Below the pieces are notes generated by a model. The model saw nothing but the letters and a program-made list of their open reading frames with translations. It was not told the DNA's origin and did not search any database. A DNA stretch of 64,000 nt, taken from contig JAGWXF010000011.1 in assembly GCA_018970025.1 (NCBI GenBank), forward strand, positions 8,898 to 72,897, given 5' to 3'. This document shows positions 5,863-58,092 of the stretch, one piece after another; within the stretch, counting starts at the first letter, position 1; the number at the start of each line of letters is the position of its first letter. Position numbers and translations under genes: made by a program. This stretch comes from Actinomycetales bacterium. GTDB taxonomy: Bacteria; Actinomycetota; Actinomycetes; S36-B12.

Positions 5863-5865
5863 GGG

Positions 5866-16557: not shown

Positions 16558-17079
16558 GTGGATGTGGCGACATTGATGGCGATGGCCCGGCGTGCCTCCG
16601 GAATGTCGCAGGCCGAGGTAGCCAGGCGCGCGGGAACCTCGCGCCCCACGCTGTCGGCCTACGAGAGCGGGTCGCGCAATCCCACGCTGGACACCCTCGA
16701 GCGTGTCCTGGCTGCGAATAGGCAGCACCTGGTGTCGGTGCCCGACCCAGTGTTCACGCATCACGCCGACCGGCGGGGCAAGACGTTCTTCGTGCCTGAC
16801 CAGCTGCCGCGCCTGCCGGTCGAGGCCGCGCTCGCGACGGTCGTCCTACCGCCGCACGCTGACTGGTCTCCGTCGGGCCGCCCGAGGAACCTCGCCGATC
16901 GCAGCGAGCGACTGCTGGCCTACCAGGTGGTGCTGGCGGAGGGCAGACCCGCGGACATCCTGCGGTTCGTCGATGGAGCGCTCCTTGTCGATGCCTGGGC
17001 CGATCTGCACCTGCCTGCCGCGATCAGGCACGCGTGGCAGCCGCTCGTTGATCGCGCCCTGTCGGCCGGATCCCGATGA
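16558..17079 (+). CDS. XRE-family HTH protein, probable antitoxin of a DUF1814 (AbiEii/MenT-like) nucleotidyltransferase toxin
   Basis: HTH MSQAEVARRAGTSRPTLSAYESGSRNPTLDTLERVL plus a ~110-aa C-terminal domain. Its stop overlaps (ATGA) the start of the NTase remnant. Confidence 0.75.
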   Translation: MDVATLMAMARRASGMSQAEVARRAGTSRPTLSAYESGSRNPTLDTLERVLAANRQHLVSVPDPVFTHHADRRGKTFFVPDQLPRLPVEAALATVVLPPHADWSPSGRPRNLADRSERLLAYQVVLAEGRPADILRFVDGALLVDAWADLHLPAAIRHAWQPLVDRALSAGSR

Positions 17080-17620
17080 GCGACAGTCCCATCACCGGCT
17101 TTCAAGTGGAGGTGGCGCGCGTCTTCTTCGCCATGCCTGAGGCTGGCTCCTTCCTGCCGACCGGCAGTGGATGGTTGAAACGGTGCAGGAGTCCCAGACC
17201 TTCGTTCGACTCTCCGTTGCCGGCCAAGATGACCTGATCGTCGACATCGGCCTCGACTCTCCACCTGATCTGCCGCCCACGATGTCGATCCTCGGCCCCA
17301 CGTACGCACCCCTGGAACTCGCCGCACGAAAGTTGCTGGCACTGTTCGATCGGGCGATGCCGCGCGACTTCGTCGATGTGTTCCGCCTCGTCCAACGCTG
17401 GAACCGGGAAGAACTGATGAGCCTCGCGCGAGCCATTGATCCGGGTTTCGACACCAAGGTCCTCGCGACCGCCGTGCGCCAACTCGACCGTTACCGCAAT
17501 GACGACATCCCGATCGGCGCCACCGAACTCCCAGAATTGCGGGCCTACTTCCACGGGTGGGCGCAAGAACTGGCGTCAGAGGTGGCGGACGGGCGCCAGC
17601 AGGCTCGAACCGACGCATAA
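17076..17620 (+). pseudogene. DUF1814 / AbiEii-MenT-like nucleotidyltransferase toxin, internally deleted and frameshifted
   Basis: ATG 17076 gives MSDSPITGFQVEVARVFFAMPEAGSFL... (family-typical N-terminus), then nonsense to a stop at 17235-17237. ORF 17171..17620 in another frame holds only the C-terminal half (…TFVRLSVAGQDDLIVDIGLD…LGPTYAPLELAARKLLALFDRAMPRDFVDVFRL…). The ~70-90 aa bearing the catalytic NTase motif are absent. Confidence 0.7.
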
Positions 17621-39258: not shown

Positions 39259-41046
39259 GTGCGTCGATGCGTGCTGGCGGCCGTCGCATGCGCTCTGTCG
39301 GCGGCCGTCATCGCGGGTGCCACTCCGGCGCAGGCCGATCCACCGCGGATTGCCACCGGGTGGCTGCCCTACTGGGTCACCTCTCCTGCTGCCCCGCAGG
39401 GGGTCGCCAGCGCCACCGCGAACGCCGACGTGCTGACCGAGGTGTCGCCATTCTGGTACTCGGCCACCAAGGGCGGGCCAGCCGGCGTGACCGTCGGCTT
39501 CAATCCGAACTTCAAGGATGCCGCGGCCAGCGCGTCCTGGGCCATGGCCCAGTTGCGGGCGGCCGGCTTGAGCGTCCTGCCGGCGATCGCGGACGGATCC
39601 GGCAAGGGGACGATGGCGGCCGTGCTGGCGAACCCGGCAACGCGCACCGCGCACGTGAACGACATCGTCAGCCTGGTCGTCGCCAATGGCTACGACGGCA
39701 TCGACCTGGACTACGAGCAGTTCGCCTTCGCGGACGGTCGCGGGACCTGGGCGGCGACCCAGCCGAACTGGACGGCCTTCGTCACCGAGCTCGGCGCCGC
39801 GCTGAAGGCCCAGGGCAAGCTGCTGTCGGTCACCATCCCCGGGCCCTGCTCGACCACGAATGCCTGTGGCGGCACGAACGGCTACTGGGTGTACGACCTC
39901 GCCGGCATCTCGGCCGCTGCCGATCGCATCCGGATCATGACCTACGACTTCCACTACAACGCGCCCGGTGCGATCGCGCCCATCGGCTGGGTCACGGCAA
40001 CGGCCCAGTACGCCGCGACGGTCGTCCCGCCGGCCAAGCTGAGCATCGGCATCCCGGCCTACTCGCGCTCCTGGACGGTCAAGGACGGATCGAAGTTCCG
40101 GCTGACCGGTGCCTGCCCGACGACCGGTGACGCCTATCGCAAGCTCACCGCGATGTCGTCGACCACCGCGGCGGCGATCCCGGCACTGCTGGCAACCGTG
40201 GGCGTCGACCCGGCCACGGTGCAATGGGACCCGGCCAGCCAGGAGAGCTGGGTCGAGTACGACAAGCCGGTCACCTGGACGGATGCGGCTGGTGCCCAGC
40301 AGACCTGCGTTGCCAGGCGGGTGATGTGGTGGGTGCCCCCGCAGGGGGTCCTTGCGCGAGCGCAGCTGGTGGGGCAGCTCGGCCTTGGGAGCGTGGCGTT
40401 CTGGACCATCGGCGGCGAGGATCCGGGCCAGTGGTCGGTGATCCGCACCTACGCCCAGCAACTGGCCCCCGCCGCCACGGCCGTCGCGATCAGCGCCCCG
40501 CCGACGGCGGTGTTCGGCACGAATGCCCCGATCTCGGCCGTCGTCACCGCGAATGGGGCTCCGGTGACCGGCGTGGAGGCAGCCCTGCAGTTCCAGCCAG
40601 CCGGCGGGCAGTGGGCGACGGTGCAGAGCGCTGGCCTGGCGGCTGACGGGACGGTGAGCTTCGCACCGGCCTTCACGGCCAGCGGGCGATGGCGCATCTT
40701 CGTCCCGGGGGCTCCGGGACGCGCCGAGCAGGCAAGCGACCCGCAGCCGGTCGAGGTGACCTCCGCCGTCCGCGCCGTCCCGAGGAAGAAGAAGGCGCCG
40801 AAGGGCAGCAGCCTGGTCGTGCGAGCAGTGGCGCGGCCGGCGCTGGCCCGCCAGAAGCTGGTCGTCCAGATGCTGGCCAAGGGCACCTGGTCGGCGGTCG
40901 GGCGGGGACGGGCAAATGCCAAGGGCATCGCCAAGATCGACATCAGGATCGGCAAGAAGGGGCCGCATCAGTACCGGGTGATGGCCCAGGCGCGGCGCGG
41001 GGTCGGCCCCGGCTTCTCCGAGCCCTTCACCATCAAGGGGACGTAG
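39259..41046 (+). CDS. secreted glycoside hydrolase family 18 (chitinase-like) with C-terminal Ig-like domains
   Basis: Track ORF 38713..41046 starts inside antisense dacB. GTG 39259 follows GGGAGGA and gives the signal peptide VRRCVLAAVACALSAAVIAGATPAQA (alternative ATG 39208). GH18 catalytic motif DGIDLDYE. Confidence 0.8.
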   Translation: MRRCVLAAVACALSAAVIAGATPAQADPPRIATGWLPYWVTSPAAPQGVASATANADVLTEVSPFWYSATKGGPAGVTVGFNPNFKDAAASASWAMAQLRAAGLSVLPAIADGSGKGTMAAVLANPATRTAHVNDIVSLVVANGYDGIDLDYEQFAFADGRGTWAATQPNWTAFVTELGAALKAQGKLLSVTIPGPCSTTNACGGTNGYWVYDLAGISAAADRIRIMTYDFHYNAPGAIAPIGWVTATAQYAATVVPPAKLSIGIPAYSRSWTVKDGSKFRLTGACPTTGDAYRKLTAMSSTTAAAIPALLATVGVDPATVQWDPASQESWVEYDKPVTWTDAAGAQQTCVARRVMWWVPPQGVLARAQLVGQLGLGSVAFWTIGGEDPGQWSVIRTYAQQLAPAATAVAISAPPTAVFGTNAPISAVVTANGAPVTGVEAALQFQPAGGQWATVQSAGLAADGTVSFAPAFTASGRWRIFVPGAPGRAEQASDPQPVEVTSAVRAVPRKKKAPKGSSLVVRAVARPALARQKLVVQMLAKGTWSAVGRGRANAKGIAKIDIRIGKKGPHQYRVMAQARRGVGPGFSEPFTIKGT

Positions 41047-42802
41047 CCTGATCCGATCGCGTCGGGATGCTGACGCTGGCCGACGCCAGCTCGAACCAGC
41101 GCAGGTGCTCGAAGTCGAAGGTCGGGCCGGCGGCATCGGCGAGGTCGGCACTGGTGACCGGGTCCGGATCCGGCAGGCCGGTCAGGAGGGCATTCGCGTC
41201 CTGCAGGTAGTCCATGAGCGCAGACTCGGGCGCCTGATCGTGCTGCTTGGGATACGACAGCCGGCCGAGCGCGTCATAGTGCAATGACGCCAGGCGCAGG
41301 GGCGGCTCGACCGGGCCCTGACGGTGATGCCAGCGGCCGGTCGACGGATCGAAGCGGTAGGACGGGAGCAGCCGCCAGCCGTGCTGCGCGATCAGGTCGA
41401 CGGAGCGGACGATGTACTCGAACACCTGCTCCGAGATGAAGTAGTTGAAGTTCACCCGCACCCAGCCTGGCTTGATGCCCTCGCAGCCCCGGGTGATCTC
41501 CCGCTCGAAGGCATGGGAGCGCTCGAGGTCGATGCCCAGCAGACGGTGCCCGTACGGGCCGGCACATGAGCACCCGCCACGGGACTGGATGCCGAACAGG
41601 TCGTTCAGCACGGCGACCACGAAGTTGTGATGCAGGTAGGCACCGCGGGGGCTGCGGATGACGAAGGACACGATCGACAGGCGCTCGGCCTGCAGGTTGC
41701 CGAGCACCTCGATCCGCGGATTGCCCTGCCAGGCGGCGATCGCCCGCCGGACGAAGTCCTCCTCATGCGCCCGGATGACGTCTGCGCCAACGGCCTGCTT
41801 GAGGTGGAAGACCAGTCCGGCGCGGATGGACTCGACGATCGCCGGGGTGCCGCCCTCCTCGCGATGCTCGGGGTCGCGGAGGTAGACATGCTCCTGCGGG
41901 TTGACGTACGCGACGGTCCCGCCGCCGACGACGTCGGGCACGCTGTTCACCAACAGGTCGCGGCGGACGATGAGGACGCCGGGCGTGCCGGGGCCGCCGA
42001 CGAACTTGTGCGGGCTGAGGAAGATGGCGTCCTTGTATGCCAGGGGATGATCAGTGCAGCGAGGGTTCATCTCGATGTCGACGTACGGCCCTGCCGCGGC
42101 GAAGTCCCAGAAGGCCAGGGCGCCGTGCTCATGCAGGACCTGGGTGATGGCGTGGGTATCTGAGACGATGCCGGTCACATTGCTCGCGGCGCTGAAGGAC
42201 GCGATGCGCAGCGGCCGATCGCGGTAGGCGGTGAGCTCGGCGCGCAAGTGCTCGAGGTCGATGTGGCCGTCCGCATCCTCCCGGATGGTCACCACGTCGG
42301 CGATCGACTCCCGCCAGGGCAGCTCATTGCTGTGGTGCTCGAACGGGCCGATGAACACCACCGGCCGCTCGTCTGCGGGGATGTGATCGGTGAGGCGATA
42401 GCGAGCATCGAGATCCGCCGGCACCCGCAGGTTGAGGATGCCGATGAGGCGGTTCACCGCCCCCGTCGATCCCGAGCCGCAGAAGATCACGCAGGTGGAG
42501 TCGTCTCCGTTGACGGCCTGGCGGATGATCGACCGGGCATCCTCGCGCAGCCGGGTCGTCTGCAGCCCGGTCCCGCTGGACTCGGTGTGGGTATTGGCAT
42601 ACCGGGGCAGGACCTCGTCCGTGATGAAGTCCTCGATGAAGGCCAGCGCCCGGCCGCTGGCGGTGTAGTCGGCGTAGGTGACCCGGCGTGCGCCGAAGGG
42701 ACCATGCATCACCTGGTCATCGCCGATCACCGATGCGCGGATCCTCGCCAGCAGCGGCGGGTCGGGCAGGTGCTCGGCGGCCGGCGGGATGACCAGGGTC
42801 AT
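41033..42802 (-). CDS. class V aminotransferase-fold PLP enzyme (cysteine-desulfurase-like) with ~170-aa C-terminal extension
   Basis: ORF 41033..42943; start set at ATG 42802 ([12 protein letters not shown]...) to avoid overlap with divergent clpS. …[14 protein letters not shown]…, PLP lysine in [14 protein letters not shown]. Confidence 0.8.
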
Positions 42803-42845
42803 GACCGCAGGGTACGAGTCGGCCGTGGTGGGAGACAATGGGGCC

Positions 42846-43130
42846 ATGTCGATCGCCCCTGCCGAGGTCGAGCGTCCGAGCGTGGACGTCGCCGCGGACC
42901 GGCCGTGGGTCACGATCGTCTGGAATGACCCGATCAACCTCATGTCGTACGTGACCTACGTGTTCATGACCTACTTCCGCTACGACCGGTCCAGGGCCGA
43001 GTCGCTCATGCTGGACGTCCACCAGCGTGGCCGCGCCGTGGTCTCCAGCGGATCTCGCGAGGAGATGGAGCGCGATGTCACCGCGATGCATTCCTATGGC
43101 CTGTGGGCCACCCTGCGCAAGGACGAGTAG
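42846..43130 (+). CDS. clpS: ATP-dependent Clp protease adaptor ClpS
   Basis: ATG 42846; …[46 protein letters not shown]…; 94 aa. Confidence 0.9.
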
Positions 43131-43696
43131 TGGGATTCCAGCGGACGGACTCCGCGCGCATCATCCTGCGCACTGAGGAGTTCGAGCGCGCCCTGCTCCT
43201 GTCGCTGGCCGATCAGCTGTGCTCGTTCATCCTCCCTGATGGCCAGGCCGGCGATTGCGATGCGGACCCCCTCGAGGCCATGGTGGGCATCGACTCCCAG
43301 GCGCAGCGGCCGCAGGATCCCGCACTTGCCCGGCTGCTGCCGGATGCCTACCTCGACGATGAGGAGGCGGCGGACGAGTTCCGCCGCTTCACCGAGCGCT
43401 CGCTGCGCCAGGCGAAGCTGGCGCATGCGAGCACGGTGCAGGACACCCTGCGTCGGTCGGGGGACAAGGTCGTGCTCTCGCAGGACGAGGCCCTCAGCTG
43501 GCTGGGCTTCCTGAACGATGCCCGGATCACCCTCGGGGTGCGGATCGAGATCACCGAGGACAACCACGAGGAGCTCGCCGGCCTGCCGGAGGACGATCCG
43601 AGGCTGGCCTCCTTCCAGGTCTACGACTGGCTGACCTACCTGCAGGACTCACTCATCCGGGTGCTGGCCCCGCAGGAGTCGGACGAGCCCGCCTGA
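43130..43696 (+). CDS. DUF2017 domain protein (conserved ClpS neighbour)
   Basis: GTG 43130 overlaps the clpS TAG by 1 nt (track ORF starts at 43103). Acidic ~188-aa protein in the conserved position after clpS. Confidence 0.7.
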   Translation: MGFQRTDSARIILRTEEFERALLLSLADQLCSFILPDGQAGDCDADPLEAMVGIDSQAQRPQDPALARLLPDAYLDDEEAADEFRRFTERSLRQAKLAHASTVQDTLRRSGDKVVLSQDEALSWLGFLNDARITLGVRIEITEDNHEELAGLPEDDPRLASFQVYDWLTYLQDSLIRVLAPQESDEPA

Positions 43697-43717
43697 GTGG
43701 GCGCCTAGGCTGTCGCC

Positions 43718-44149
43718 GTGCTGGTGATCCGCAGGGAGCTGGTCGATCGCATCGTCGCCCATGCCAGGGCCGATCATCCGGACGAGGCCTGCGGGGTGAT
43801 CGCCGGGCCCGTCGGGACGGATCGGCCCGAGCGGTTCATCCCGATGGTGAACGCGGCGAGGTCCCCGACGTTCTATGAGTTCGACTCCTCGGACCTGCTG
43901 CGCCTGTACCGGCAGATGGACGACCTGGACGAGGTTCCCGTGGTCATCTATCACTCGCATACGGCCACTGAGGCGCGTCCGTCGCGGACGGACATCTCGC
44001 TGGCCAGCGAGCCCGATGCCCACTATGTCCTGGTCTCCACTCGCCAGACCGGCCCGCTGGACGGCCCGTATGAGCTCCGCTCGTTCCGCATCGTCGACGG
44101 CCAGGTGAGCGAGGAGGACGTCCAGATCGTCGAGGCCTATCCGGGCTGA
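43718..44149 (+). CDS. mec: JAMM/MPN+ metalloprotease (Mec-type CysO-cysteine peptidase)
   Basis: EACG… and the JAMM motif HSHTATEARPSRTD (H-x-H-x7-S-x2-D); 143 aa. Confidence 0.85.
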   Translation: MLVIRRELVDRIVAHARADHPDEACGVIAGPVGTDRPERFIPMVNAARSPTFYEFDSSDLLRLYRQMDDLDEVPVVIYHSHTATEARPSRTDISLASEPDAHYVLVSTRQTGPLDGPYELRSFRIVDGQVSEEDVQIVEAYPG

Positions 44150-44337
44150 GCCGAGGCGAGGCGGCGACTGCGCCTGACGAGCGCGGGCATGCGTGCCTTC
44201 CTGCGAGGGATTCGCAACAGCGGTGCCTGGCATGGCGCAGGCGGCCCGCCTTTCGTAGGCTGTCGTGGCTGCTCTACGAGGGGTACCAGGCCAGCCCGGC
44301 CGCCGAGAAGCCGTCGAACCGTCGTCTATGGGGTTGA

Positions 44338-45564
<1,227 letters not shown>

Positions 45565-45589: not shown

Positions 45590-46390
45590 ATGACGGATGC
45601 GCCGATCGGCATCATCGACTCCGGGGTCGGCGGGCTCACGGTCGCCCGCGCGATCCTCGATCAGCTGCCCCATGAGCCGATCCGCTATGTCGGCGATACC
45701 GCCCGTGGCCCCTACGGCCCGCGTCCCATCGCCGAGGTGCGCCAGTTCGCCCTGGAGATCATGGATGTCCTGGTGGCGGATGGCGTGAAGCTGCTGGTGA
45801 TCGCCTGCAACTCCGCGAGCGCGGCGACCCTGCGCGATGCCCGGGAGCGCTATGACGTCCCGGTCATCGAGGTCGTGCACCCGGCGGTCCGGCGGGCCTC
45901 GGCGGCGACCAGATCGGGCCGGGTGGGGGTCATCGGCACCCAGATGACGATCACCTCGCGTGCCTATGAGGACGCCTTCGCCGCCGCCCCGGATGTCACG
46001 CTGGTGTCGGCCGCCTGCCCGCGATTCGTGTCGTTCGTCGAGGCCGGGGTGACCGGCGGGCCGGAGCTGCTCGCAGTCGCCCGGGAGTACCTCGCGCCGC
46101 TGCAGGAGGCCGAGGTCGACACCCTGGTACTCGGCTGCACCCACTACCCGCTGCTCACCGGAGTGCTCTCCTACGTGATGGGGGAGCAGGTGACCCTCGT
46201 GTCGAGCGCGGAGGAGACCGCCAAGGACGTCTACCGCACGCTGGTGGCCCAGGACCTGCTCCGCGACCCGGGCCTGCCTGAGCCGATCCATCGCTTCATG
46301 GCGACGGGCGACCCGGAGGAGTTCCAGCGCCTCGGCCGGCGCTTCCTCGGTCCCGAGATCGGCGACGTCGCCGGCTTCAGGGGAGCATGA
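45590..46390 (+). CDS. murI: glutamate racemase
   Basis: [13 protein letters not shown], catalytic Cys motifs IACNSAS and GCTHYP. Confidence 0.9.
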
Positions 46391-46432
46391 CCGGGTGAGC
46401 GCGGACCGGGCCGCGAGGCATGGACGGCCCCG

Positions 46433-47182
46433 ATGCGGCTGACCGTCCTGGGCTGTGCCGGATCCTTCCCGACGGCCGACTCGCCGGCCTCTGCCTACCT
46501 GGTGGAGCATGAGGGCCACCGCATCCTGCTGGACCTGGGCAATGGCGCGATCAGCGGCCTGCAGCGCCTGGTCGACCTGGACGATCCCGATGCCCTCGAC
46601 GCCGTGGTGCTCTCCCATGGGCACCTGGATCACTGCGCCGACCTCGGCTCGCTGTACGTCGCCCGGACCTACCACCCCACGGTGCGGTTCCCCCGGCTGC
46701 CGGTCCTGGGCCCGGCCGGGATCGCCGGGCGCATCGCCGAGATGTACGGCACGAGCATTGCCGCGCTGGAGTCGAGCTTCGCCTTCGGTGAGCTCGGCAG
46801 CAGTCCGATGGCCCTGGGCCCGTTCGAGGTGGACGCCTGCCCCGCCCGCCATCCGGTGGCCGCCCTGTGCATCGGGGTGCGCGCCGGCGGCCGGCGGCTG
46901 GCGTACTCGGGTGATACCGGGCCGAATGACGAGCTCGTCGAGCTCGCGCGTGATGCTGACCTGGCACTATTCGAGGCATCATTCGTGGGTGACGATGCCC
47001 CGCCGGCCCTGCACCTGACCGCGACGCAGGCCGGGCAGCATGCGGCACTGGCTGGCGCCCGGAGCCTGCTGGTGACGCACCTGGTGAGGTGGAATGACGA
47101 TGCGCAGGTGCTGGCTGAGGCGACTGCGGCATTCGGCGGGCCGACCCGGCTGGCCCACCCCGGGCTAGTGGTCGATGTCTAG
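46433..47182 (+). CDS. MBL-fold metallo-hydrolase
   Basis: HxHxDH as SHGHLDHCAD; conserved position between murI and rph. Confidence 0.85.
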   Translation: MRLTVLGCAGSFPTADSPASAYLVEHEGHRILLDLGNGAISGLQRLVDLDDPDALDAVVLSHGHLDHCADLGSLYVARTYHPTVRFPRLPVLGPAGIAGRIAEMYGTSIAALESSFAFGELGSSPMALGPFEVDACPARHPVAALCIGVRAGGRRLAYSGDTGPNDELVELARDADLALFEASFVGDDAPPALHLTATQAGQHAALAGARSLLVTHLVRWNDDAQVLAEATAAFGGPTRLAHPGLVVDV

Positions 47183-47221
47183 CGTCCGGCTGCCCCGGGC
47201 GATTCACTAGGGTCAGCGCCC

Positions 47222-47959
47222 ATGACCCGCTCCGATGGCCGGACCAATGACGAACTGCGACCTGTGAGCTTCGAGCGCGGATGGCTGGACCAGGCCGAGG
47301 GGTCGGTGCTGGTGAGCTTCGGCCGCACCCGGGTGCTGTGCGCGGCCTCCTTCACCGAGGGGGTGCCGCGCTGGCTGAAGGGATCGGGCAAGGGCTGGGT
47401 GACGGCGGAGTACGCCATGCTGCCGCGGGCGACGAATACCCGCTCCGATCGAGAGTCGGTGAAGGGACGGGTGGGCGGACGCACCCAGGAGATCTCCCGG
47501 CTCGTCGGTCGCAGCATCCGCGCGGTGGTGGACATGTCGGTGCTCGGCGAGAACACCATCGTGCTGGACTGCGATGTGCTGCAGGCCGATGGCGGGACAC
47601 GGACGGCGGCGATCACCGGCGCCTACGTCGCCCTGGCGGATGCGGTCACGTGGGCGATGGATCGCGGGGTGCTGGCGCGCACGCCGCTGATCGGGACGGT
47701 GGCCGCCGTGAGCGTCGGCATCATCGAGGGCCAGCCGCGGCTGGACCTGCACTACGACGATGACGTGCGGGCGGAGACGGACATGAACGTCGTGATGACC
47801 GGTGACGGCAGGTACGTCGAGGTGCAGGGCACGGCGGAGGGGGAGCCGTTCGATCGCAGCCTGCTCGATCAGCTCCTCGCGCTGGCCGCCGACGGCTGCG
47901 CGACGCTGACCGACCTGCAGCAGCAGGCGCTGTCGCTGCCGCTGGTCATTCGCGGATGA
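47222..47959 (+). CDS. rph: ribonuclease PH
   Basis: [40 protein letters not shown]…GRTQEISRL…; 245 aa. Confidence 0.95.
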
Positions 47960-48561
47960 GCCGGCAGCTGGTGCTGGCCAGCCGCAATCCCAAGAAGGTC
48001 GCCGAGCTGCATCGCATCCTGTCCGATGCGGGCCTGGACATCGACCTGCTGGGCACCGATGCCTTCCCCGGCCTGCCCGAGGTCGAGGAGACCGCATCCA
48101 CGTTCGCCGGCAATGCGCTGCTGAAGGCACGGCAGGTATGTGCCTTCACCGGCCTGCCGGCGGTCGCCGACGACTCCGGCCTGACGGTGGATGCCCTCAA
48201 CGGGATGCCGGGCGTGCTGTCGGCCCGCTGGGCGGGTTCGCACGGTGATGATGAGGCGAACCTTCGGCTGATCCTGGCACAGGTGGCGCATGTGCCGCCG
48301 GGTCGGCGCGGCGCCGCCTTCCACTGCGCGGCGGCCCTTGCCCTGCCGGACGGCACGGAGCGGGTCGTCGAGGGAACCCTGGAGGGGGAGCTCATCGACC
48401 AGCCGCGCGGCGGCAATGGCTTCGGGTACGACCCGATTTTCCTCCCGCTCGGCTCCTCGGTGACGACCGCCGAGATGTCCGCGAGCCAGAAGGATGCGAT
48501 CAGCCATCGGGGCGTGGCCCTGCGTGCCCTGGTGCCGGTCCTGCGCGAGCTGCTCGGCTGA
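47956..48561 (+). CDS. rdgB: dITP/XTP pyrophosphatase (non-canonical purine NTPase)
   Basis: ATGA overlap with rph. …[14 protein letters not shown]… and …[11 protein letters not shown]…SHRG… motifs. Confidence 0.9.
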
Positions 48562-49850: not shown

Positions 49851-50588
49851 ATGCCGATCGCAGCAGTGCATATCCCAGGAGTGCACGTCCCAGCGATGCA
49901 TATCCCGGACGGTTTTATCAACGCGCCGGTGAGCGCGATCGCCGGCGCCATCGCCATCGCCGGCATCGCCGTGTGCATCTGGGGTGCCCGTCGGCAGCTC
50001 GATGAGAAGACGGCTCCCCTCGCGGGGCTGGTGGCCGTCTTCGTCTTCGCGATGCAGATGCTGAACTTCCCCGTGGCGGCGGGTACCAGCGGCCACCTGC
50101 TGGGCGGCGCCCTGGCCGCGATCCTGGTCGGCCCCTATGCGGGCGCCCTGGCGGTGAGCGTGGTGATCCTGGTGCAGGGCCTGCTGTTCGCCGATGGCGG
50201 GCTCAGCGCCCTCGGCCTGAACATCATCAACATGGCCCTGCTCACGGCCGTCGTCGGCTGGGCCGTCTTCCGCCTGGTCATCCGCCTCGCCGGCACCTCA
50301 CGGCCCGCCGTGATCGCCGGCTCGTTCGCGGCCGGGTTCGTCGCGGTGCCGGTCGCGAGCCTGATGTTCGTGCTGGAATACGCGCTCGGTGGGACGGGCA
50401 CGATCAGCGTGTCCACCGTCCTGGTCGCCATGACCGGGGTGCACGTCCTCATCGGGATCGGCGAGGGGCTGATCACGGCCCTGACCGTCGGTGCGGTTTA
50501 CCTCACTCGGCCGGATCTCGTCTACGGCGTGCATGACCGCAGGGCTCGCACGCTGGAGATCCGCACGGCGACGACAGCGGGAGCGTGA
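49851..50588 (+). CDS. cbiM: ECF-transporter substrate-capture component CbiM/NikM (Co/Ni)
   Basis: ATG 49851 has the SD GAGAGGAG (49837-49844). The canonical family N-terminus MHIPDGF begins only at ATG 49896. …NFPVAAGTSGHLLGGALAAILVGP…. Confidence 0.85.
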   Translation: MPIAAVHIPGVHVPAMHIPDGFINAPVSAIAGAIAIAGIAVCIWGARRQLDEKTAPLAGLVAVFVFAMQMLNFPVAAGTSGHLLGGALAAILVGPYAGALAVSVVILVQGLLFADGGLSALGLNIINMALLTAVVGWAVFRLVIRLAGTSRPAVIAGSFAAGFVAVPVASLMFVLEYALGGTGTISVSTVLVAMTGVHVLIGIGEGLITALTVGAVYLTRPDLVYGVHDRRARTLEIRTATTAGA

Positions 50589-50592
50589 GGGC

Positions 50593-50940
50593 ATGCGACG
50601 CAGCATCTGGATCGTCATCGGGGTCGGCCTGGCCGTCGCGCTGGTCGCGGCGGGATTCCTGAGCTACTACGCCAGCAGTGCTCCGGATGGCCTGGAGAAG
50701 GTGGCCGAGGACCACGGGTTCATCGATACGGCGCAGGACTCCGCCATGGCCAGCCTGCCGACGGCCGGCTACGCCATCGAGGGGCTGGGCAATGACCGGC
50801 TGTCGAGCGGTCTCGCCGGCGTGCTCGGGGTCCTGGTCATGATCGTCGTCGGCTTCGGCCTGTTCTGGCTGCTGGGTCGGGGCCGCAGGTCTGGCCAGGC
50901 TGGCGTGAGCGCCGATGACCACGCGCAGGTCGGCGGATAG
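50593..50940 (+). CDS. PDGLE-domain membrane protein (CbiN/NikN-like accessory component)
   Basis: ATG 50593, 5 nt after the cbiM stop. MRRSIWIVIGVGLAVALVAAGFLSYYASSAPDGLEKVAEDHGF… plus a C-terminal TM segment. Confidence 0.75.
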   Translation: MRRSIWIVIGVGLAVALVAAGFLSYYASSAPDGLEKVAEDHGFIDTAQDSAMASLPTAGYAIEGLGNDRLSSGLAGVLGVLVMIVVGFGLFWLLGRGRRSGQAGVSADDHAQVGG

Positions 50941-51726
50941 GTGCCCACGACCCATCATCATGGGCACGATGTCGGCGAGCGCCTGTACGTTCACGTGCAC
51001 ACCCCGGTCCACGCCCTGCCGGCAGAGGTGAAGACCGTTGCCATGGTCGCGTTCGTCTTCGCGGTCATCGCCACGCCGAACAACCAGTTCTGGGCCTTCG
51101 GGGCCTACGCGGCGATCCTGGTCGCGCTGGCCGCCATCTCCCGGATTCCCGCGCGCACGATCGTGCCGCGGATGCTCGTGGAGGTGCCGTTCGTCCTCTT
51201 CGCGATCCTCATGCCGGTGCTCGGCCCGGCACCCAAGGTCGAGGTCCTCGGCCTGAGCCTGTCCTCGGCCGGCCTGCTCGCCGGCTGGGGCATCCTGATC
51301 AAGGGCACCCTGGGGGTCGTCTGCTCGATCCTGCTGGCCGCGACCACGCCAGCCCGTGACCTCCTGCTCGGCCTGGAGCGGCTGCGGGTGCCACAGTTGA
51401 TCGTCCAGATCGCCGGCTTCATGCTGCGCTATGTCCACGTCGTGGGAGATGAGATGCACCGGATGTCCCTGGCCCGCCAGGCTCGCGGATTCCAGGCGAC
51501 CGGTGTCCGGTCGTGGCCGGTCCTGGCCCAGTCGGGCGGGACGCTGTTCATCCGCTCGTACGAGCGCGGCGAGCGCGTGCACCTGGCCATGCTCAGTCGC
51601 GGCTATACCGGCCGGATGCCGGAACTGTCGTCCCATGTGACGACCGGACGAGACTGGGCGACGGGCTTGATGCTGCCGGCAGTGGCGGCCGCGATCGCCA
51701 TCTGCGCATGGCTGGCAAGCCGATGA
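50941..51726 (+). CDS. cbiQ: ECF transporter transmembrane (T) component
   Basis: GTG 50941 immediately follows the previous stop. Multi-TM with …ARQARGF…/…RSYERGERVHLAMLSRGY… typical of CbiQ/EcfT. Confidence 0.85.
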   Translation: MPTTHHHGHDVGERLYVHVHTPVHALPAEVKTVAMVAFVFAVIATPNNQFWAFGAYAAILVALAAISRIPARTIVPRMLVEVPFVLFAILMPVLGPAPKVEVLGLSLSSAGLLAGWGILIKGTLGVVCSILLAATTPARDLLLGLERLRVPQLIVQIAGFMLRYVHVVGDEMHRMSLARQARGFQATGVRSWPVLAQSGGTLFIRSYERGERVHLAMLSRGYTGRMPELSSHVTTGRDWATGLMLPAVAAAIAICAWLASR

Positions 51727-52490
51727 GCGAGGCAATGATGGCGCCGAATGACCCGAGCCTGGACGTCTCCGGCCTGGCCTTCGCCTACCCGGATGGCCAC
51801 CAGGCCCTCTTCGGCGTCGACCTGGTCATCCAGCGTGGTGAGCGGGTTGCGCTGCTGGGGGCCAATGGCGCCGGCAAGACCACCCTGGTGATGCACCTGA
51901 ACGGCCTGCTGTCGGGGGGCGTGGGCACGGTGCACGTAGCCGGCTTGCTGGTCGGCAAGCCCAACCTGCGCGAGATCCGACGTCGGGTCGGGGTGGTCTT
52001 CCAGGATCCGGACGACCAGCTGTTCATGCCGACGGTCCGCGATGACGTGGCCTTCGGGCCGGCGAACATTGGCCTCGAAGGCGATGCGCTGACGGCGCGG
52101 GTCGAGTCGGCCCTGGCCATGGTGGGGATGCTGGAGTTCGCCGATCGGCCCCCGCACCACCTGTCCTTCGGCCAGCGTCGACGCGTCGCCGTTGCGACCG
52201 TCCTGGCCATGGAGCCCGAGATCCTGGTGCTCGACGAGCCCTCGAGCAATCTCGATCCGGCCAGCCGCCGCGAGCTCGCTGACATCCTGCGCTCCCTCGA
52301 CATCACGATGCTGATGGTGACCCATGACCTGCCGTACGCCCTTGAGCTGTGCCCGCGGGCGGTCATCCTGTCGGACGGCGTGGTCGTGGCCGATGGCTCG
52401 ACCCGAGAGATCCTGACGGACGATGCGCTGATGCGGGCCAATCGCCTCGAGCTTCCGTACGGCTTCGACCCGGCCTCGCTGCCGGCCTGA
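51723..52490 (+). CDS. cbiO: ECF transporter ATPase
   Basis: ATGA overlap with cbiQ. Walker A GANGAGKTT, signature LSFGQRRR, Walker B ILVLDEP. Confidence 0.9.
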   Translation: MSEAMMAPNDPSLDVSGLAFAYPDGHQALFGVDLVIQRGERVALLGANGAGKTTLVMHLNGLLSGGVGTVHVAGLLVGKPNLREIRRRVGVVFQDPDDQLFMPTVRDDVAFGPANIGLEGDALTARVESALAMVGMLEFADRPPHHLSFGQRRRVAVATVLAMEPEILVLDEPSSNLDPASRRELADILRSLDITMLMVTHDLPYALELCPRAVILSDGVVVADGSTREILTDDALMRANRLELPYGFDPASLPA

Positions 52491-52933: not shown

Positions 52934-53293
52934 ATGACCACCCTGGACGCACCCCCGAGCACCACGCCCAATGCCGACGGCTCCGTGCCGATCAAGCTGC
53001 TGCATGACCGAGTGCTCGTCCGGGAGAGCGGCGAGGACGGCGAGCGACGCTCGAGCGGGGGCATTGTCATCCCGGCCACCGCGCAGGTCGGCCGCCGGCT
53101 CAGCTGGGCCAGGGTGGTGGCAATCGGCCCGAATGTGCGGACCATCGAGATCGGCGATCGCGTGCTCTTCGAGCCAGAGGATCGCAGCAGTGTCGAGCTG
53201 CAGGGCCAGGTGTACGTCCTGCTACGGGAGCGCGATGTGCACGCCGTGGCCGCCGAGCACGCGAGCAATGCCGGGACTGGCCTGTACCTCTAG
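52934..53293 (+). CDS. GroES (Cpn10)-family protein
   Basis: …IKLLHDRVLVRESGEDGERRSSGGIVIPATAQ…ARVVAIGP…IEIGDRVLF… follows the GroES pattern, with an N-terminal extension. Confidence 0.75.
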   Translation: MTTLDAPPSTTPNADGSVPIKLLHDRVLVRESGEDGERRSSGGIVIPATAQVGRRLSWARVVAIGPNVRTIEIGDRVLFEPEDRSSVELQGQVYVLLRERDVHAVAAEHASNAGTGLYL

Positions 53294-53358: not shown

Positions 53359-54918
53359 GTGCCTGACCGCACGGACTGCGTCATCATCGGGGCCGGCCAT
53401 AACGGCCTTGTCGCGGCGTGCTACCTGGCCATGGCCGGCAAGCGGGTGCACATCCTCGAGGCCCAGCAGGCCGTGGGCGGGGCGACCGTGTCGTCGCGCG
53501 TGTTCCCCGGGGTCGACGCCGCCCTGTCGAAGTACTCCTACCTGGTCTCGCTGTTCGCCCATCAGATCCGGCAGGAGCTCGGCGTCAGCATCCGAACCCA
53601 GAAGCGGCGAGTGGCGTCCTATACCCCGGATCCGCCCAATCCGGCCCAGGGGATGCTCGTCCCGGCGGGCGACGGCGATGGCCTCGAGCGGAGCATCGAG
53701 CGACTGACTGGCCGACGAGATGACGCGGCGGCGTGGCGGGAGTTCACCGCGCGCACGGCCACCCTGGCGCGGATCATCTTCCCGACCATGCTGGAGCCGC
53801 TCCGCTCGCGGGAGCAGATGCGGCAGCTGGTTCCCGATGACCTGTGGCGCGACTTCATCGAGCGGCCGATCGGCGAGGTGATCGAGCGCACCTTCACCGA
53901 TGACCTCGTCCGCGGCGTGGTGCTCACCGATGCGCTGATCGGGACCTTCTCCCATGCGCACGATCCCTCACTGCGACAGAACCAGTGCTTCCTCTACCAC
54001 GTGATCGGCAACGGCACGGGCGACTGGGACGTCCCGGTTGGCGGCATGGGCGCGCTGACCGGCGCCCTGCTCGCACGGGCCAGCGAGCTGCAGGTCCAGG
54101 TCACCACGGGCGCGCGGGTCACCGCCGTCGAGGCCAATGGTGTTCGTGCCATGGTGCGCGCGGAGACGGCGACCGGGACCCTGCGGATCGACTGCCAGGA
54201 TGTGCTGGCCAATTGCGCGCCCGCGGTGCTCGATGAGCTGCTCGGCCGGGCTCCTCGGCCCATCAAGGCGGCGGATGCCGGCGCGCAGGTGAAGGTGAAC
54301 ATGGTGCTCAAGCGGCTGCCCCGCCTGCGCGATCAGACCGTGGATCCGGCCGATGCCTTTGCCGGCACCTTCCACGTCAACGAGTCGTACCGGCAGCTGG
54401 CGGCGGCGCATGGCATCGCATCCAGGGGCGAGATCCCCACGCCGCTGCCGCTGGAGATCTACTGCCACAGCCTGACCGACCCGACGATCCTGGGCCCCGA
54501 GCTTCGTCAGTCCGGAGCGCAGACCATGACGGTCTTCGCCCTGCAGACCCCCCATGCGCTGTTCGCCGGCGGCGACGACCGGATGCGCAAGCGAGCCCTG
54601 CGAGCGGTCGTGGCCAGCCTGAACTCGGTGCTGGCCGAGCCGATCCAGGGTTGCCTGCTCATCGACGCCGAAGGCCGGCCGTGCATCGAGACGAATACCA
54701 CCGCCGACATCGAGCAGGCCCTGGGCATCCCGACGGGCAATATCTTCCACACCCCGCTCGACTGGCCGTTCGTGGACGATCCAGCACTGGTCGGAACCTG
54801 GGGCGGCGAGACCGAGATCCCCAACGTCACCATCTGCGGATCGGGTGCGCGGCGAGGCGGGGGAGTATCAGGCATCCCCGGCCGCAACGCGGCGCACTAT
54901 CTGCTCTCCCGGCCCTAG
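53359..54918 (+). CDS. FAD/NAD(P)-dependent oxidoreductase, phytoene-desaturase family
   Basis: GTG 53359; dinucleotide motif DCVIIGAGHNGLVAACYLAMAGKRVHILE; 519 aa. Confidence 0.8.
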   Translation: MPDRTDCVIIGAGHNGLVAACYLAMAGKRVHILEAQQAVGGATVSSRVFPGVDAALSKYSYLVSLFAHQIRQELGVSIRTQKRRVASYTPDPPNPAQGMLVPAGDGDGLERSIERLTGRRDDAAAWREFTARTATLARIIFPTMLEPLRSREQMRQLVPDDLWRDFIERPIGEVIERTFTDDLVRGVVLTDALIGTFSHAHDPSLRQNQCFLYHVIGNGTGDWDVPVGGMGALTGALLARASELQVQVTTGARVTAVEANGVRAMVRAETATGTLRIDCQDVLANCAPAVLDELLGRAPRPIKAADAGAQVKVNMVLKRLPRLRDQTVDPADAFAGTFHVNESYRQLAAAHGIASRGEIPTPLPLEIYCHSLTDPTILGPELRQSGAQTMTVFALQTPHALFAGGDDRMRKRALRAVVASLNSVLAEPIQGCLLIDAEGRPCIETNTTADIEQALGIPTGNIFHTPLDWPFVDDPALVGTWGGETEIPNVTICGSGARRGGGVSGIPGRNAAHYLLSRP

Positions 54919-55023
54919 CGTTCCCGGCAGAGTGCTCCAGGCCTGTTCCTGCGCGGCCCCAGAGCCGACCCCTGATTTCGTGGTCCGCCGGGCATGCAGT
55001 ATCGTCCGCAGCCACAACTGAAT

Positions 55024-55148
55024 ACCTCATCAAGAGGGGCAGAGGGATACGGCCCGTTGAAGCCCCGGCAACCTATCCGGCGAATCTCGTTCACGAGGCC
55101 ACCCGGAGTTCGGTGCCAACTCCGACCTGACCACAGGAAAGATGAGCG
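55024..55148 (+). promoter_or_regulatory. SAM-I (S-box) riboswitch
   Basis: CTCATCAAGAGGGGCAGAGGGATACGGCCCGTTGAAGCCCCGGCAACC…GGTGCCAACTCCGACC…GAAAGATGAG matches the conserved SAM-I core. P1 is CTCATC (55026-31) / GATGAG (55141-46). The SD GAGAGG at 55148-53 precedes ATG 55161. Confidence 0.9.
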
Positions 55149-55160
55149 AGAGGCCTCGTC

Positions 55161-56438
55161 ATGACCGTTCTTGAGCACGTTCGTCCAACCGACGTCCTTG
55201 GCGCTGCTACCGCACTGGTGTGCCGTGCGTGCGGTGCGCGAGCACCGCTCGATGCGAGCTACGCCTGCATGGAGTGCTTCGGCCCCCTCGAAGTGGGCTA
55301 CGAGTACGACACCATCACCCGTCAGCAGATCCAGGCCGGCCCATCCTCGATGTGGCGCTATGAGGCGCTGCTGCCGGTCGCCCCCGGAGCGCACGCTCGG
55401 GCCGGGCTCCATCCCGGACTCACCAGGCTGGTGCGCGCCGACAACCTGGCAGCGGCACTCGGCGCCCGAACCGTGTGGGTCAAGGACGACTCAGGCAACC
55501 CGACCCACTCCTTCAAGGACCGCGTGGTGGCCGTCGCCCTGGAGAACGCCCGCCGGCTGGGCTACCAGACCATCGCCTGCGCATCGACCGGCAACCTGGC
55601 CAATGCGGTCGCGGCTGCCGCTGCCCGGGCCGGGCTCGCATCCGTGGTGTTCGTCCCCTCGAACCTCGAGGCGGGCAAGATCGTCACGACGGCCGTCTAC
55701 GGCGGCACCCTGGTGGCCATCGAGGGGACCTACGACGACGTCAACCGCCTGTGCACCGAGGTCGCGGCATGCCGCGACTGGGGCTTCGTGAACGTCAACC
55801 TGCGCCCGTACTACGCCGAGGGCAGCAAGACGATGGGCTATGAGATCGCCGAGCAGCTCGGGTGGCGACTGCCCGATGCCGTCATCGCGCCGGTGGCCTC
55901 GGGATCGCTGCTGACCAAGGTCGACAAGGCGTTCCGGGAGTTCACCTCCCTCGGGCTCGTCGATCCGCACCCAACGGCTGTCTACGGAGCCCAGGCGACT
56001 GGCTGCTCCCCGGTATCCCGCGCCTTCCGCGAGGGGCAGGATTTCGTCACCCCGGTCAAGCCGGACACGATCGCCAAGTCCCTGGCGATCGGGAATCCGG
56101 CCGATGGGCCCTTCGCTCTCGATGTCGTGCGGCGTACCGAGGGCGCCATCGAGGACGTCAGCGATGCCGAGGTGGTCGAGGGCATCAGGCTGCTCGCGCG
56201 CACCGAGGGCATCTTCGCCGAGACGGCCGGTGGTGTCGTGGTGGCGACCTACCGCAAGCTGCTGCGCGAAGGGCTGATCGACCCGAGGGCCGAGGTCGTC
56301 CTGCTCAATACCGGCGACGGGCTGAAGACCCTCGATGCGGTGCAGCCCTCCTGCGGCCCGACGCTGACCGTCACCCCGTCATTCGATGCCTTCCAGGCTG
56401 CCTTTGCCGGCATCGCAGCCGATGGGGCATCGGCATGA
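55161..56438 (+). CDS. threonine-synthase-like fold-type-II PLP enzyme, probable sulfur-carrier-dependent homocysteine synthase (MetM-like)
   Basis: N-terminal CRAC…CMEC zinc-ribbon-like motif and PLP-lysine motif NPTHSFKDR; 425 aa. Preceded by the SAM-I riboswitch and translationally coupled (ATGA) to a MoaD-like gene. Confidence 0.8.
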   Translation: MTVLEHVRPTDVLGAATALVCRACGARAPLDASYACMECFGPLEVGYEYDTITRQQIQAGPSSMWRYEALLPVAPGAHARAGLHPGLTRLVRADNLAAALGARTVWVKDDSGNPTHSFKDRVVAVALENARRLGYQTIACASTGNLANAVAAAAARAGLASVVFVPSNLEAGKIVTTAVYGGTLVAIEGTYDDVNRLCTEVAACRDWGFVNVNLRPYYAEGSKTMGYEIAEQLGWRLPDAVIAPVASGSLLTKVDKAFREFTSLGLVDPHPTAVYGAQATGCSPVSRAFREGQDFVTPVKPDTIAKSLAIGNPADGPFALDVVRRTEGAIEDVSDAEVVEGIRLLARTEGIFAETAGGVVVATYRKLLREGLIDPRAEVVLLNTGDGLKTLDAVQPSCGPTLTVTPSFDAFQAAFAGIAADGASA

Positions 56439-56710
56439 GTGCCACGGTCCGCATCCCGACCATCCTGCGGACGTATACCCAGGGATCGACGGAGGTGACG
56501 GTCGAGGCAGGCACCCTGCAGGAGGCGATCGCTGACCTCGACCGCCAGTACCCCGGGATCGGCGCGCGCGTGCTCGACGAGGCCGGTGCGCTGCGCCGCT
56601 TCGTCAATGTCTACGTCAACGACGATGACGTACGGTTCCTCGACGGCCTGCAGACATCGCTCGCCGATGGCGCGGCCATCTCGATCATCCCGGCGGTCGC
56701 GGGAGGGTGA
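56435..56710 (+). CDS. MoaD/ThiS-family sulfur-carrier protein (MetO-like; CysO paralogue)
   Basis: ATG 56435 overlaps the upstream stop. 91 aa, MSATVRIPTILRTYTQGSTEVTVEAGTLQEAIADLDRQYPGIGARVL…IIPAVAGG. About 54 of 90 positions match CysO at 44342 by eye. Confidence 0.85.
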   Translation: MSATVRIPTILRTYTQGSTEVTVEAGTLQEAIADLDRQYPGIGARVLDEAGALRRFVNVYVNDDDVRFLDGLQTSLADGAAISIIPAVAGG

Positions 56711-56723
56711 GCTTCGGCTCACC
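56706..56723 (+). terminator. short hairpin GGTGAGC-TTCG-GCTCACC spanning the metO-like stop codon
   Basis: Read directly from the sequence. A second dyad CACCTGA-N11-TCAGGTG (56720-56744) reaches the stop of the convergent metzincin gene. There is no U-tract, so terminator function is unproven. Confidence 0.35.
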
Positions 56724-56737
56724 TGATCACGCGCCGC

Positions 56738-57982
56738 TCAGGTGAAGCAGGGCAGGGAGGCGAGCTGGGCGAGGCCGGCGAGGTCCCCTGGCTGGAGCCG
56801 GTTGGTCGAGTCATTCCCGTGCACGGGCGACATGAGCTGCTCCGGGTCGTCGACATGCCCGAGGTTGAGGACGTGCCCGAGCTCATGCAGGACGATCGGC
56901 CCCAGGCCGCGGCCGTGGAAGCCGCGGTAGATCTGCTCCGTTCGATCGATGGCGATCCCGGCCTTGACGATGCGGACGCGGCCATCGGGCAGCGCCTGCG
57001 TCAGGGCAAGGGTCTGCGCGGCCGCGGTCGCCAGGCCGGGCAGTGACGACGGGTCCGAGTAGCCGATGAACAGGTCTGCCTGATCGGTGGCCCAGCTGCC
57101 GGACTGCTGTGGCAGGACGCTGGTGTCGCCGACGTCGACGAAGGTGAACCCGGATGCTGCGCTGATCTGCCGGATCGCCTCCTGGATGGTCGCAACGGCC
57201 TGACCGGCAGGGCTGGGCAGCGAGGCGCGGTTGATCGCGTACCGGATGGGCGTGCAGCGATCCCAGTGCGCAGGGCTGCCGGAGGCGTCGGTAAACAGGA
57301 ATGCGTAGGAGGTCGCGCTGGGCGGGGCTACCGGTTGCAGGCCCTCGGCGATGCGAACCAGGCCATCCAGGCCGACCGTTGGCTTGCCCAGCGAGCTCTC
57401 CTGCGCCGTCACCATGACATCAGTGCCAGCGAGCCCGCCGGCGCCGGGCAGGGTCACCACGACGCCCCCTCCGTACCGGGTGATGTCCGAGGCGCGGCAG
57501 TGCCTGCGGCCCGTGCCGCAGGCGGCGTACACCCGACCCGTCACAGCGCCGACCTGAGTCGAGCCGGCCGCGGAGCCGGCCTCCCAGGTCGGCCATCTGC
57601 CGGGGCCAAAGGAGCCCGCCGGGCCCTGGATGACCGTGATCGTCCCCCTGGCACTGACGTAGGTCGCCTCCAGCTGCGGGCGAGCGACCGACGGATCCTG
57701 GCATTCGGCGTAGAACGCCTCGCGCAGGCGGAAGCCGAGCTTCTGGGTGGGCTGGTAGACCGTGTAGTCGACGCAGCCCTGCTTGCCGCGATACTGCCCG
57801 GTCTCATCGGGGCCAGTCGCAGCCGAGGCCGGCGGGATCCCAGGGCCCTCCACGAGGGCAAGCCCGGCGAGGACGATGGCGATCGCGACCGTGAGCCAGT
57901 GCGTTCGACCAGGACGTGTTCGACCGGGCGTGAGCCGCAATGGCGAGCGTCGGCCAGAGCCGACGTCATGGTCGCGGGCCAT
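56738..57982 (-). CDS. secreted zinc metalloprotease (metzincin, matrixin/M10-like catalytic domain)
   Basis: ORF 56738..58015 (TTG); start set at ATG 57982 (MARDHDVGSGRR…, then TM/signal HWLTVAIAIVLAGLALV). HExxHxxxxxH as HELGHVLNLGH, followed by a Met-turn candidate LMSP. Confidence 0.75.
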   Translation of the reverse strand: MARDHDVGSGRRSPLRLTPGRTRPGRTHWLTVAIAIVLAGLALVEGPGIPPASAATGPDETGQYRGKQGCVDYTVYQPTQKLGFRLREAFYAECQDPSVARPQLEATYVSARGTITVIQGPAGSFGPGRWPTWEAGSAAGSTQVGAVTGRVYAACGTGRRHCRASDITRYGGGVVVTLPGAGGLAGTDVMVTAQESSLGKPTVGLDGLVRIAEGLQPVAPPSATSYAFLFTDASGSPAHWDRCTPIRYAINRASLPSPAGQAVATIQEAIRQISAASGFTFVDVGDTSVLPQQSGSWATDQADLFIGYSDPSSLPGLATAAAQTLALTQALPDGRVRIVKAGIAIDRTEQIYRGFHGRGLGPIVLHELGHVLNLGHVDDPEQLMSPVHGNDSTNRLQPGDLAGLAQLASLPCFT

Positions 57983-58016
57983 GGGCGCAATGTACCCCGG
58001 GACACCATGCTGCAAG

Positions 58017-58092
<76 letters not shown>

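Follow-up and report, generated by a model that had tools for sequence, protein, structure and literature searches.

Within the window, by which we mean the whole stretch of 64,000 nucleotides (64 kb) that was analysed, positions 55024-56710 very probably hold a two-gene operon of methionine biosynthesis, metM-metO, which is placed under an S-adenosylmethionine (SAM) riboswitch of the SAM-I class and is predicted to form homocysteine. The unit consists of the riboswitch RNA and two open reading frames (ORFs), the first belonging to the threonine synthase (ThrC) family and the second coding for a sulfur carrier with a beta-grasp fold, and this trio is conserved among Actinomycetota. Its three parts are the following.

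55024-55148, + strand: SAM-I riboswitch aptamer, matching RF00162 over the full model with 71.8 bits.
55161-56438, + strand: metM-type gene for a 425-aa, ThrC-homologous, fold-type-II pyridoxal 5'-phosphate (PLP) enzyme, assigned from profiles and Streptomyces orthologues.
56435-56710, + strand: metO-type gene for a 91-aa ThiS/MoaD-family sulfur carrier ending in AVAGG, matching PF02597 (ThiS).

A cmscan search against Rfam 15 returned RF00162 as the sole riboswitch found in the window, at 55024-55148 (+), with an E value of 7.9e-15 and a match to model positions 1-108 of 108, the gathering score of the family being 44.4 bits. A first-pass annotation of this DNA had already placed a SAM-I riboswitch at 55026-55146, with a P1 helix closed by CTCATC/GATGAG, a GAGAGG Shine-Dalgarno (SD) sequence 1 nt after it and an ATG at 55161, and each of these elements was recovered at its position: CUCAUC 55026-55031 pairs with GAUGAG 55141-55146, and the start codon lies 15 nt past P1. 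The remaining features of the leader are laid out as follows.

55000-55005, + strand: possible -10 element TATCGT (TAnnnT type), read from the sequence alone.
55013-55025, + strand: conserved 5' leader motif CACAACTGAATAC, directly 5' of P1 and downstream of the TAnnnT hexamer.
55036-40 with 55062-66, + strand: helix P2a.
55044-46 with 55053-55, + strand: helix P2b.
55067-55117, + strand: helix P3, with its distal hairpin at 55086-55097.
55126-29 with 55134-37, + strand: helix P4.
55148-55153, + strand: SD sequence GAGAGG, as read from the letters, 1 nt past the 3' strand of P1 and 7 nt before ATG 55161.

Relatives were collected by scanning one genome per GTDB species, and the 80 closest (63-82% identity) were retained. 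Across an alignment of 60 distinct related leaders, the SAM-I core is invariant, 91% of the aptamer helix cells are paired, and compensatory changes affecting both sides occur in P2a, P3b and P4. The four-helix junction P1-P4, together with the conserved core and these compensatory changes, places the RNA in the SAM-I class, and we infer that the leader binds SAM. The motif CACAACTGAATAC, or a near variant of it (ACAACU[GU][AC]AUA), stands 5' of P1 in the majority of related leaders, which come from several actinobacterial orders (including L001-L029 of our numbered loci), and possibly represents the start of the transcript. Related leaders carry TACAGT similarly spaced upstream of the conserved CACAAC motif; a sigma-70 consensus scan gave no match at the metM leader. 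The minimum-free-energy folding of the leader (z -0.5) is uninformative, since the fold varies with fragment length.

With regard to the mode of control, the first-pass annotation had reported no terminator and considered translational control probable. A consensus scan of 54700-57000 detected no terminator-like site, and in 61 related leaders the purine-rich SD begins 0-3 nt past the 3' strand of P1 and the start codon follows 7-19 nt past P1. An SD abutting P1, with a start codon nearby, is the usual signature of translational riboswitches. Given this spacing and the absence of a terminator, the switch most likely blocks ribosome binding, as had been suggested. SAM riboswitches control genes of methionine, cysteine and SAM metabolism, and to repress a threonine synthase at high SAM would be metabolically senseless, which counts in favour of an enzyme forming homocysteine.

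The regulated ORF had been described as threonine-synthase-like, with an NPTHSFKDR motif and an N-terminal CxxC...CxxC pattern, and the profiles agree, with matches to PF00291 (PALP; 247.6 bits) and TIGR00260, while NF006050 was missed (282.6 against 303). The motifs concerned are CRAC (residues 21-24), CMEC (residues 36-39) and NPTHSFKDR (residues 113-121), in which K119 is the PLP lysine. The best matches in the PDB are four bacterial threonine synthases (2zsj, 6cgq, 1uim and 2d1f; E values of 5e-54 to 4e-44), with which the enzyme shares 34-37% identity, the value being 34% for M. tuberculosis ThrC, a canonical actinobacterial enzyme. The alignment with these proteins begins only at about residue 61, the N-terminal segment of about 60 aa with its CxxC...CxxC pattern forming an extension that the solved ThrCs do not have.

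Active-site motifs were compared in an alignment of the window protein, two Streptomyces proteins, the four ThrCs of the PDB and 74 full-length representatives, the latter drawn from the 1845 cluster representatives (E <= 1e-30) that an exhaustive HMMER search returned. The set formed by HSFKDRV, STGNLA, N[LVIM]RP[YF]YAEG[SA]KT, ASGS, AKSLAIGNPADG, ETAGG and NTGDGLKT is found in the window protein, in the Streptomyces proteins and in representatives down to about 45% identity, and the actual strings NLRPYYAEGSKT, STGNLA, AKSLAIGNPADGP and ETAGG are common to the window enzyme and its Streptomyces counterparts. The solved ThrCs carry instead GSFKDRG, STGNTS, SVNPxRxEGQKT, GNAGN, ATAIRIGNPASW and EPASAA. 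The window enzyme thus departs from the ThrC motifs, with GSFKDRG replaced by HSFKDRV, STGNTS by STGNLA, SVNPxRxEGQKT by NLRPYYAEGSKT, and GNAGN by ASGSL. By orthology, we predict that it is a homocysteine synthase dependent on the thiocarboxylate of MetO. Neither hom, nor thrB, nor a second ThrC paralogue was found within the 64-kb window.

The ATGA at 56435-56438 joins the metM stop to the metO start, and the small ORF indeed codes for the 91-aa carrier ending in AVAGG that had been announced. Its best sequence match in the PDB is M. tuberculosis CysO (3dwg_C, E 2.2e-25, over the full length). The first-pass annotation had made a beta-grasp fold with a free GG end a test of its proposal; the AlphaFold2 model, built with 26 homologues, has a mean predicted local distance difference test score (pLDDT) of 94, a predicted template-modelling score (pTM) of 0.84 and a beta-beta-alpha-beta-beta order. 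Foldseek placed CysO 3dwg_C first (template-modelling score, TM, of 0.92; probability 1.00; 53% identity), followed by SAMP1, MoaD and Urm1. The model, which is a confident one, describes a CysO-type beta-grasp sulfur carrier with a C-terminal GG. Downstream, a stem-loop probably marks where the operon ends or stabilises the transcript.

56705-56724, strand not assigned: G+C-rich stem-loop of 8 bp with a UUCG loop, overlapping the metO stop and lying between convergent genes.

The fold of 56698-56735 has an energy of -22.3 kcal/mol (z -4.0); it has no U tract and fails the U-tract criterion of the terminator scan.

All 80 closest relatives belong to Actinomycetota and include metagenome-assembled genomes (MAGs) labelled Nanopelagicales, Kribbella, Actinomadura, Streptosporangium, Microlunatus, Nakamurella and others; the nearest, at 80-82% identity, come from MAGs with a Nanopelagicales or Actinomycetota label. 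In all of the 30 loci that were run through Rfam, two of them from Streptomyces, RF00162 immediately precedes the homologous gene, the other loci being covered by core-motif searches. Of the 80 loci, 67 have a MetO-like ORF after the enzyme gene and two are cut off too early for a judgement, which gives 67 of 78 informative ones. Clustering of the flanking ORFs revealed no conserved activating enzyme (E1) or JAMM neighbour in the related loci; the recurrent neighbours are otsA, otsB, DUF3263 and GT2 upstream, and a cold-shock protein and GroEL downstream.

A bridge to Streptomyces is provided by both proteins. A search with MetO retrieved Kitasatospora and Streptomyces proteins with 74-77% identity, and over 410 residues the window enzyme shares 63% identity with the enzymes of two Streptomyces loci (L081 and L082). 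These loci read DUF3263, otsB, otsA, GT2, PALP (448 or 441 aa), ThiS (91 or 93 aa), CSD and Cpn60, and in each of them RF00162 stands shortly before the PALP gene. By sequence and context, the window trio is orthologous to this riboswitch/PALP/ThiS unit, the clade of the window having lost the otsB/otsA...groEL synteny. The block DUF3263-otsB-otsA-GT2-[riboswitch-metM-metO]-cold-shock-groEL recurs in Streptomyces, Actinomadura, Streptosporangium and others (the two Streptomyces loci and about 29 more).

The first-pass annotation had pointed to a metM/metO route of Streptomyces from O-phosphohomoserine to homocysteine. Such a route exists: according to the GapMind 2026 preprint, Hasebe et al. 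2024 (Appl Environ Microbiol 90:e01247-24) described in S. albulus the conversion of O-phosphohomoserine to homocysteine via a thiocarboxylate, with MetO as carrier, Mec as hydrolase, MoeZ as ligase and MetM as synthase. The same preprint states that MetM is 'often misannotated' as threonine synthase, and a SAM riboswitch is reported upstream of S. albulus metM (PMC12172450). Neither MetM nor MetO is mentioned in the GapMind supplements. The claim that the pathway is sparsely characterised does not hold, the system having been published in 2024 and already built into GapMind, whereas the expectation of mis-annotation as thrC plus moaD proved right: close relatives and the Streptomyces orthologues are all named 'threonine synthase' in NCBI, UniRef and JGI, and the carriers MoaD or SAMP1. 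The Streptomyces orthology and context, the differences from ThrC motifs, and the literature, as far as these sources report it, all support the proposal that the enzyme would be a homocysteine synthase rather than a threonine synthase.

The window holds a further carrier system about 11 kb upstream of metM-metO, in the complete cluster mec-cysO-cysM (43103-45564, +), which starts with a DUF2017 gene.

43718-44149, + strand: JAMM/MPN protein, Mec-like (PF14464 Prok-JAB, E 3e-29), resembling the desampylase model below its cutoff.
44342-44614, + strand: second sulfur carrier, CysO-type, 90 aa, ending in AVAGG (PF02597; CysO 3dwg_C, E 2.4e-32), 59% identical to MetO.
44617-45564, + strand: orthologue of CysM-type O-phosphoserine sulfhydrylase (TIGR01136, 360.9 bits, above cutoff; CysM 3dwg_A, E 2.9e-147).

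The riboswitch-metM-metO trio is, on sequence comparison, a second system parallel to the CysM/CysO/Mec orthologues of the same DNA. At 59% identity, the two carriers are less alike than MetO and the Streptomyces protein in the MetO position (76%), an argument for two dedicated carriers. The Mec-like protein is a candidate to serve both systems, acting in trans on carrier-amino-acid adducts. The earlier statement that neither an E1 nor a JAMM gene adjoins the pair is correct as regards the flanking genes and has to be qualified for the window as a whole, given this JAMM gene about 11 kb upstream.

The pathway that we propose would run as follows. A MoeZ-type E1, encoded elsewhere, would convert the C-terminal Gly-Gly of MetO to a thiocarboxylate. 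MetM, a PLP enzyme derived from threonine synthase, would bind O-phosphohomoserine, eliminate phosphate and add the sulfur of the carrier in place of water, yielding homocysteine, and release of the product may be aided by a JAMM hydrolase, for instance the Mec-like protein at 43718-44149. When SAM is plentiful, it would bind the leader RNA, lock P1 and most likely block ribosome binding, a block which pairing of the distal P3 strand with the GGCCUCG of the ribosome-binding site (RBS) may assist.

The two strands of this candidate pairing are as follows.

55093-55100, + strand: candidate anti-RBS strand ACGAGGCC, on the distal 3' side of P3, complementary to 55152-55159.
55152-55159, + strand: conserved GGCCUCGU, which takes in the spacer and the 3' end of the SD and may pair with 55093-55100.

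Together they would form 8 bp with -16.6 kcal/mol (RNAduplex), whereas the local P3 hairpin that would be displaced has -2.4. GGCCUCG is kept between SD and start codon in most lineages, across orders, and its reverse complement, CGAGGCC, is found in the distal 3' part of P3. Matching changes were observed, namely GCGGAGAC with GUCUCCGC in L011, L012 and L015, a G insertion matched by a C insertion in L077, and an additional UC or UCUC matched by an additional G or GAGA in Streptomyces loci. Over 60 leaders, 80-84% of the cells of the pairing are paired; in the MAFFT alignment the value is 80%, against 78% in shuffles, and the mean RNAduplex z over 61 leaders is only -0.8 relative to shuffles. 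The pairing is therefore put forward as a hypothesis, a candidate based on conserved complementarity rather than on proven covariation.

Precedent in the clan comes from SAM-IV, in which the PK-2 pseudoknot pairs the P3 loop with the 3' tail after P1 (PMC6890682). The distal P3 strand ACGAGGCC of the window is likewise complementary to the tail GGCCUCGU; the window RNA differs in being a SAM-I with P4 that scores best with RF00162, and the additional pairing, which is only a candidate, would overlap the RBS. We tentatively suggest that the metM leaders of Actinomycetota may form a SAM-I subtype which retains P4 and has its expression platform inside the aptamer, ACGAGGCC pairing with GGCCUCGU as a PK-2-like pseudoknot. 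In that case, the RBS would be hidden directly by a SAM-dependent docking of P1 with P3 and, if the pairing is real, translational SAM-I switches of high-G+C bacteria could work by a compact mechanism. Positions 55155-55160 could alternatively pair with the 3' strand of P1, a GAUGAG/CUCGUC hairpin appearing in the minimum-free-energy fold of a short fragment; as a general device this hairpin was ruled out, being specific to the clade of the window. In three of the loci without an adjacent carrier (L019, L025 and L047), P3 is very short and the 3' strand of P1 reads AGAUGCG.

Several points weigh against a SAM-repressed, homocysteine-forming operon. The enzyme passes TIGR00260, the thrC equivalog of NCBI, with 277.6 bits for a cutoff of 167.1. 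In 11 of the 78 informative loci (L017, L019, L025, L036, L037, L047, L054, L060, L072, L073 and L074), riboswitch and enzyme are present with no carrier in the downstream flank examined. No ThiF/MoeZ-type E1 was found within the 64-kb window; a ThiF-like probe, which provides weak negative evidence, had no match there. Orthology to S. albulus MetM is bridged via the proteins of other Streptomyces species, and both the direction of the switch (off with SAM) and its translational mode are inferred. The P3/RBS complementarity shows conservation with little covariation, its score being reached by 31 of 500 shuffles. Lastly, a homologue from Microcystis that shares 51.6% identity with S. albulus MetM and adjoins a metO-like gene is reported to have displayed threonine synthase and deaminase activity in vitro and not to have raised methionine (PMC12172450).

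Some of these points bear on alternatives to parts of the proposal. It is somewhat unlikely that the riboswitch acts otherwise than on translation initiation, through Rho-dependent termination, mRNA decay or a mechanism other than P3/RBS pairing. The lack of an intrinsic terminator would be compatible with Rho or decay, and the weak covariation, together with folds that depend on fragment length, agrees with such a mechanism; however, the SD abutting P1 and the nearby start codon in the 61 leaders leave no room for another expression platform. Unlikely, too, is an enzyme that can use free sulfide or a carrier other than MetO, for example the CysO at 44342-44614, as its sulfur donor, MetO being helpful and not obligatory. 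This would account for the loci without an adjacent carrier, the second carrier of the window has the same AVAGG end, and different pathways share carriers of this family, an example being the BexX/CysO structure 4n6e. The overlap of the metO gene with metM, and the closeness of MetO to its Streptomyces counterpart compared with that between the paralogues of the window, point instead to a dedicated partner.

The Microcystis protein, for which both activities are reported, raises the case of a bifunctional or moonlighting enzyme that forms homocysteine with the carrier and keeps threonine synthase or threonine deaminase activity, and the phosphate- and PLP-binding framework is common to ThrC and the window enzyme. 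We consider this quite improbable here, since the Microcystis gene is without a SAM riboswitch (PMC12172450) and more distant, whereas the window gene belongs to the riboswitch-bearing actinobacterial group; within that group, activity data come from S. albulus only. That the enzyme truly is a threonine synthase, with the riboswitch balancing O-phosphohomoserine between threonine and methionine next to an unrelated MoaD-type protein, is very improbable: the TIGR00260 score, the PDB matches and the database names are all on its side, but its active-site motifs are unlike those of the four solved ThrCs, with the M. tuberculosis enzyme so distant, translational coupling to a CysO-like carrier is kept in 67 of 78 informative loci, what is reported of MetM in the sources cited above contradicts it, and switching ThrC off with SAM would cut threonine synthesis when methionine is replete, the opposite of the logic of plants, in which SAM activates threonine synthase. 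The metM-metO reading is accordingly the one that we retain for the unit.

The genes that flank metM-metO are unrelated to it, and are listed here with a transporter further upstream.

49851-52490, + strand: cbiM-(cbiN?)-cbiQ-cbiO cobalt transporter of the energy-coupling factor (ECF) type.
52934-53293: weak GroES-like ORF.
53359-54918: flavin adenine dinucleotide (FAD) oxidoreductase.
56738-58015, - strand: matrixin-like protease.
58017-58092: tRNA-Lys.

No cobalamin riboswitch was detected at the cbi genes at Rfam gathering thresholds. After cysM come a racemase, a metallo-beta-lactamase (MBL)-fold protein, RNase PH and Ham1 (45590-48561). Adjoining DUF2017-mec-cysO-cysM on the other side, 41033-42943 (-) codes for a 636-aa class-V aminotransferase or SufS-like cysteine desulfurase that is extended by about 170 residues at its C terminus; its score is well below the SufS cutoff, and the carriers may receive their sulfur from it. 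Elsewhere in the window, 3805-10584 holds a cluster resembling that of myo-inositol catabolism, with a GFO/IDH/MocA oxidoreductase, a xylose-isomerase-like TIM barrel, an iolC-type 5-dehydro-2-deoxygluconokinase (5866-6912), a Cgl0159-like protein, IolB/KduI and a thiamine pyrophosphate (TPP) enzyme (IolD-like). At 16558-17620 (+), an HTH_3 regulator precedes a 149-aa ORF matching only part of the AbiEii nucleotidyltransferase toxin profile, and the pair may be a truncated remnant of a type IV toxin-antitoxin system.

The operon has a practical bearing on annotation. With the enzyme named 'threonine synthase' and the carrier MoaD or SAMP1, automated reconstructions would miss a methionine route in many Actinomycetota, and the signature motifs given above could seed a hidden Markov model (HMM) separating MetM from ThrC. 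The route is seen here in an uncultured freshwater or soil-type actinobacterium, one genome of which would run two parallel carrier-thiocarboxylate systems, for cysteine and for homocysteine.

In comparison with known systems, the window trio matches the MetM/MetO system already described and published in 2024, which GapMind includes; what is new here is the mec-cysO-cysM cluster that the window holds 11 kb upstream of the trio, together with a possible P3/RBS pairing. As in S. albulus, there is a ThrC-homologous PLP enzyme, a ThiS/MoaD carrier, an upstream SAM riboswitch and a Mec-type JAMM in the genome, while the host is an uncultured high-G+C actinobacterium, and metM-metO, flanked by otsA/otsB and groEL2 in other Streptomyces, has cbiMNQO and the FAD oxidoreductase as its neighbours. 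Canonical ThrC has the same fold and PLP-lysine motif as the window enzyme, and presumably the same substrate, O-phosphohomoserine, but the window gene is tied to a SAM riboswitch and a carrier. The CysM/CysO/Mec/MoeZ system of M. tuberculosis (3dwg) likewise combines a fold-type-II PLP enzyme, an O-phospho amino acid and a carrier thiocarboxylate, and its CysO resembles MetO; it differs in leading from O-phosphoserine to cysteine and in relying on the CysK/CysM branch, not on that of ThrC. In Wolinella succinogenes, the HcyS/MetY/HcyD/HcyF system, reportedly the work of Krishnamoorthy and Begley in 2011, is said to use a carrier thiocarboxylate as sulfur donor for homocysteine, its enzyme being, by the same account, an O-acetylhomoserine sulfhydrylase (fold type I, MetY) and no ThrC homologue, with E1 and JAMM genes clustered with it. 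Wolinella and the window would both draw the sulfur of homocysteine from a carrier thiocarboxylate, the former through a MetY-type enzyme and the latter, as we propose, through a relative of threonine synthase.

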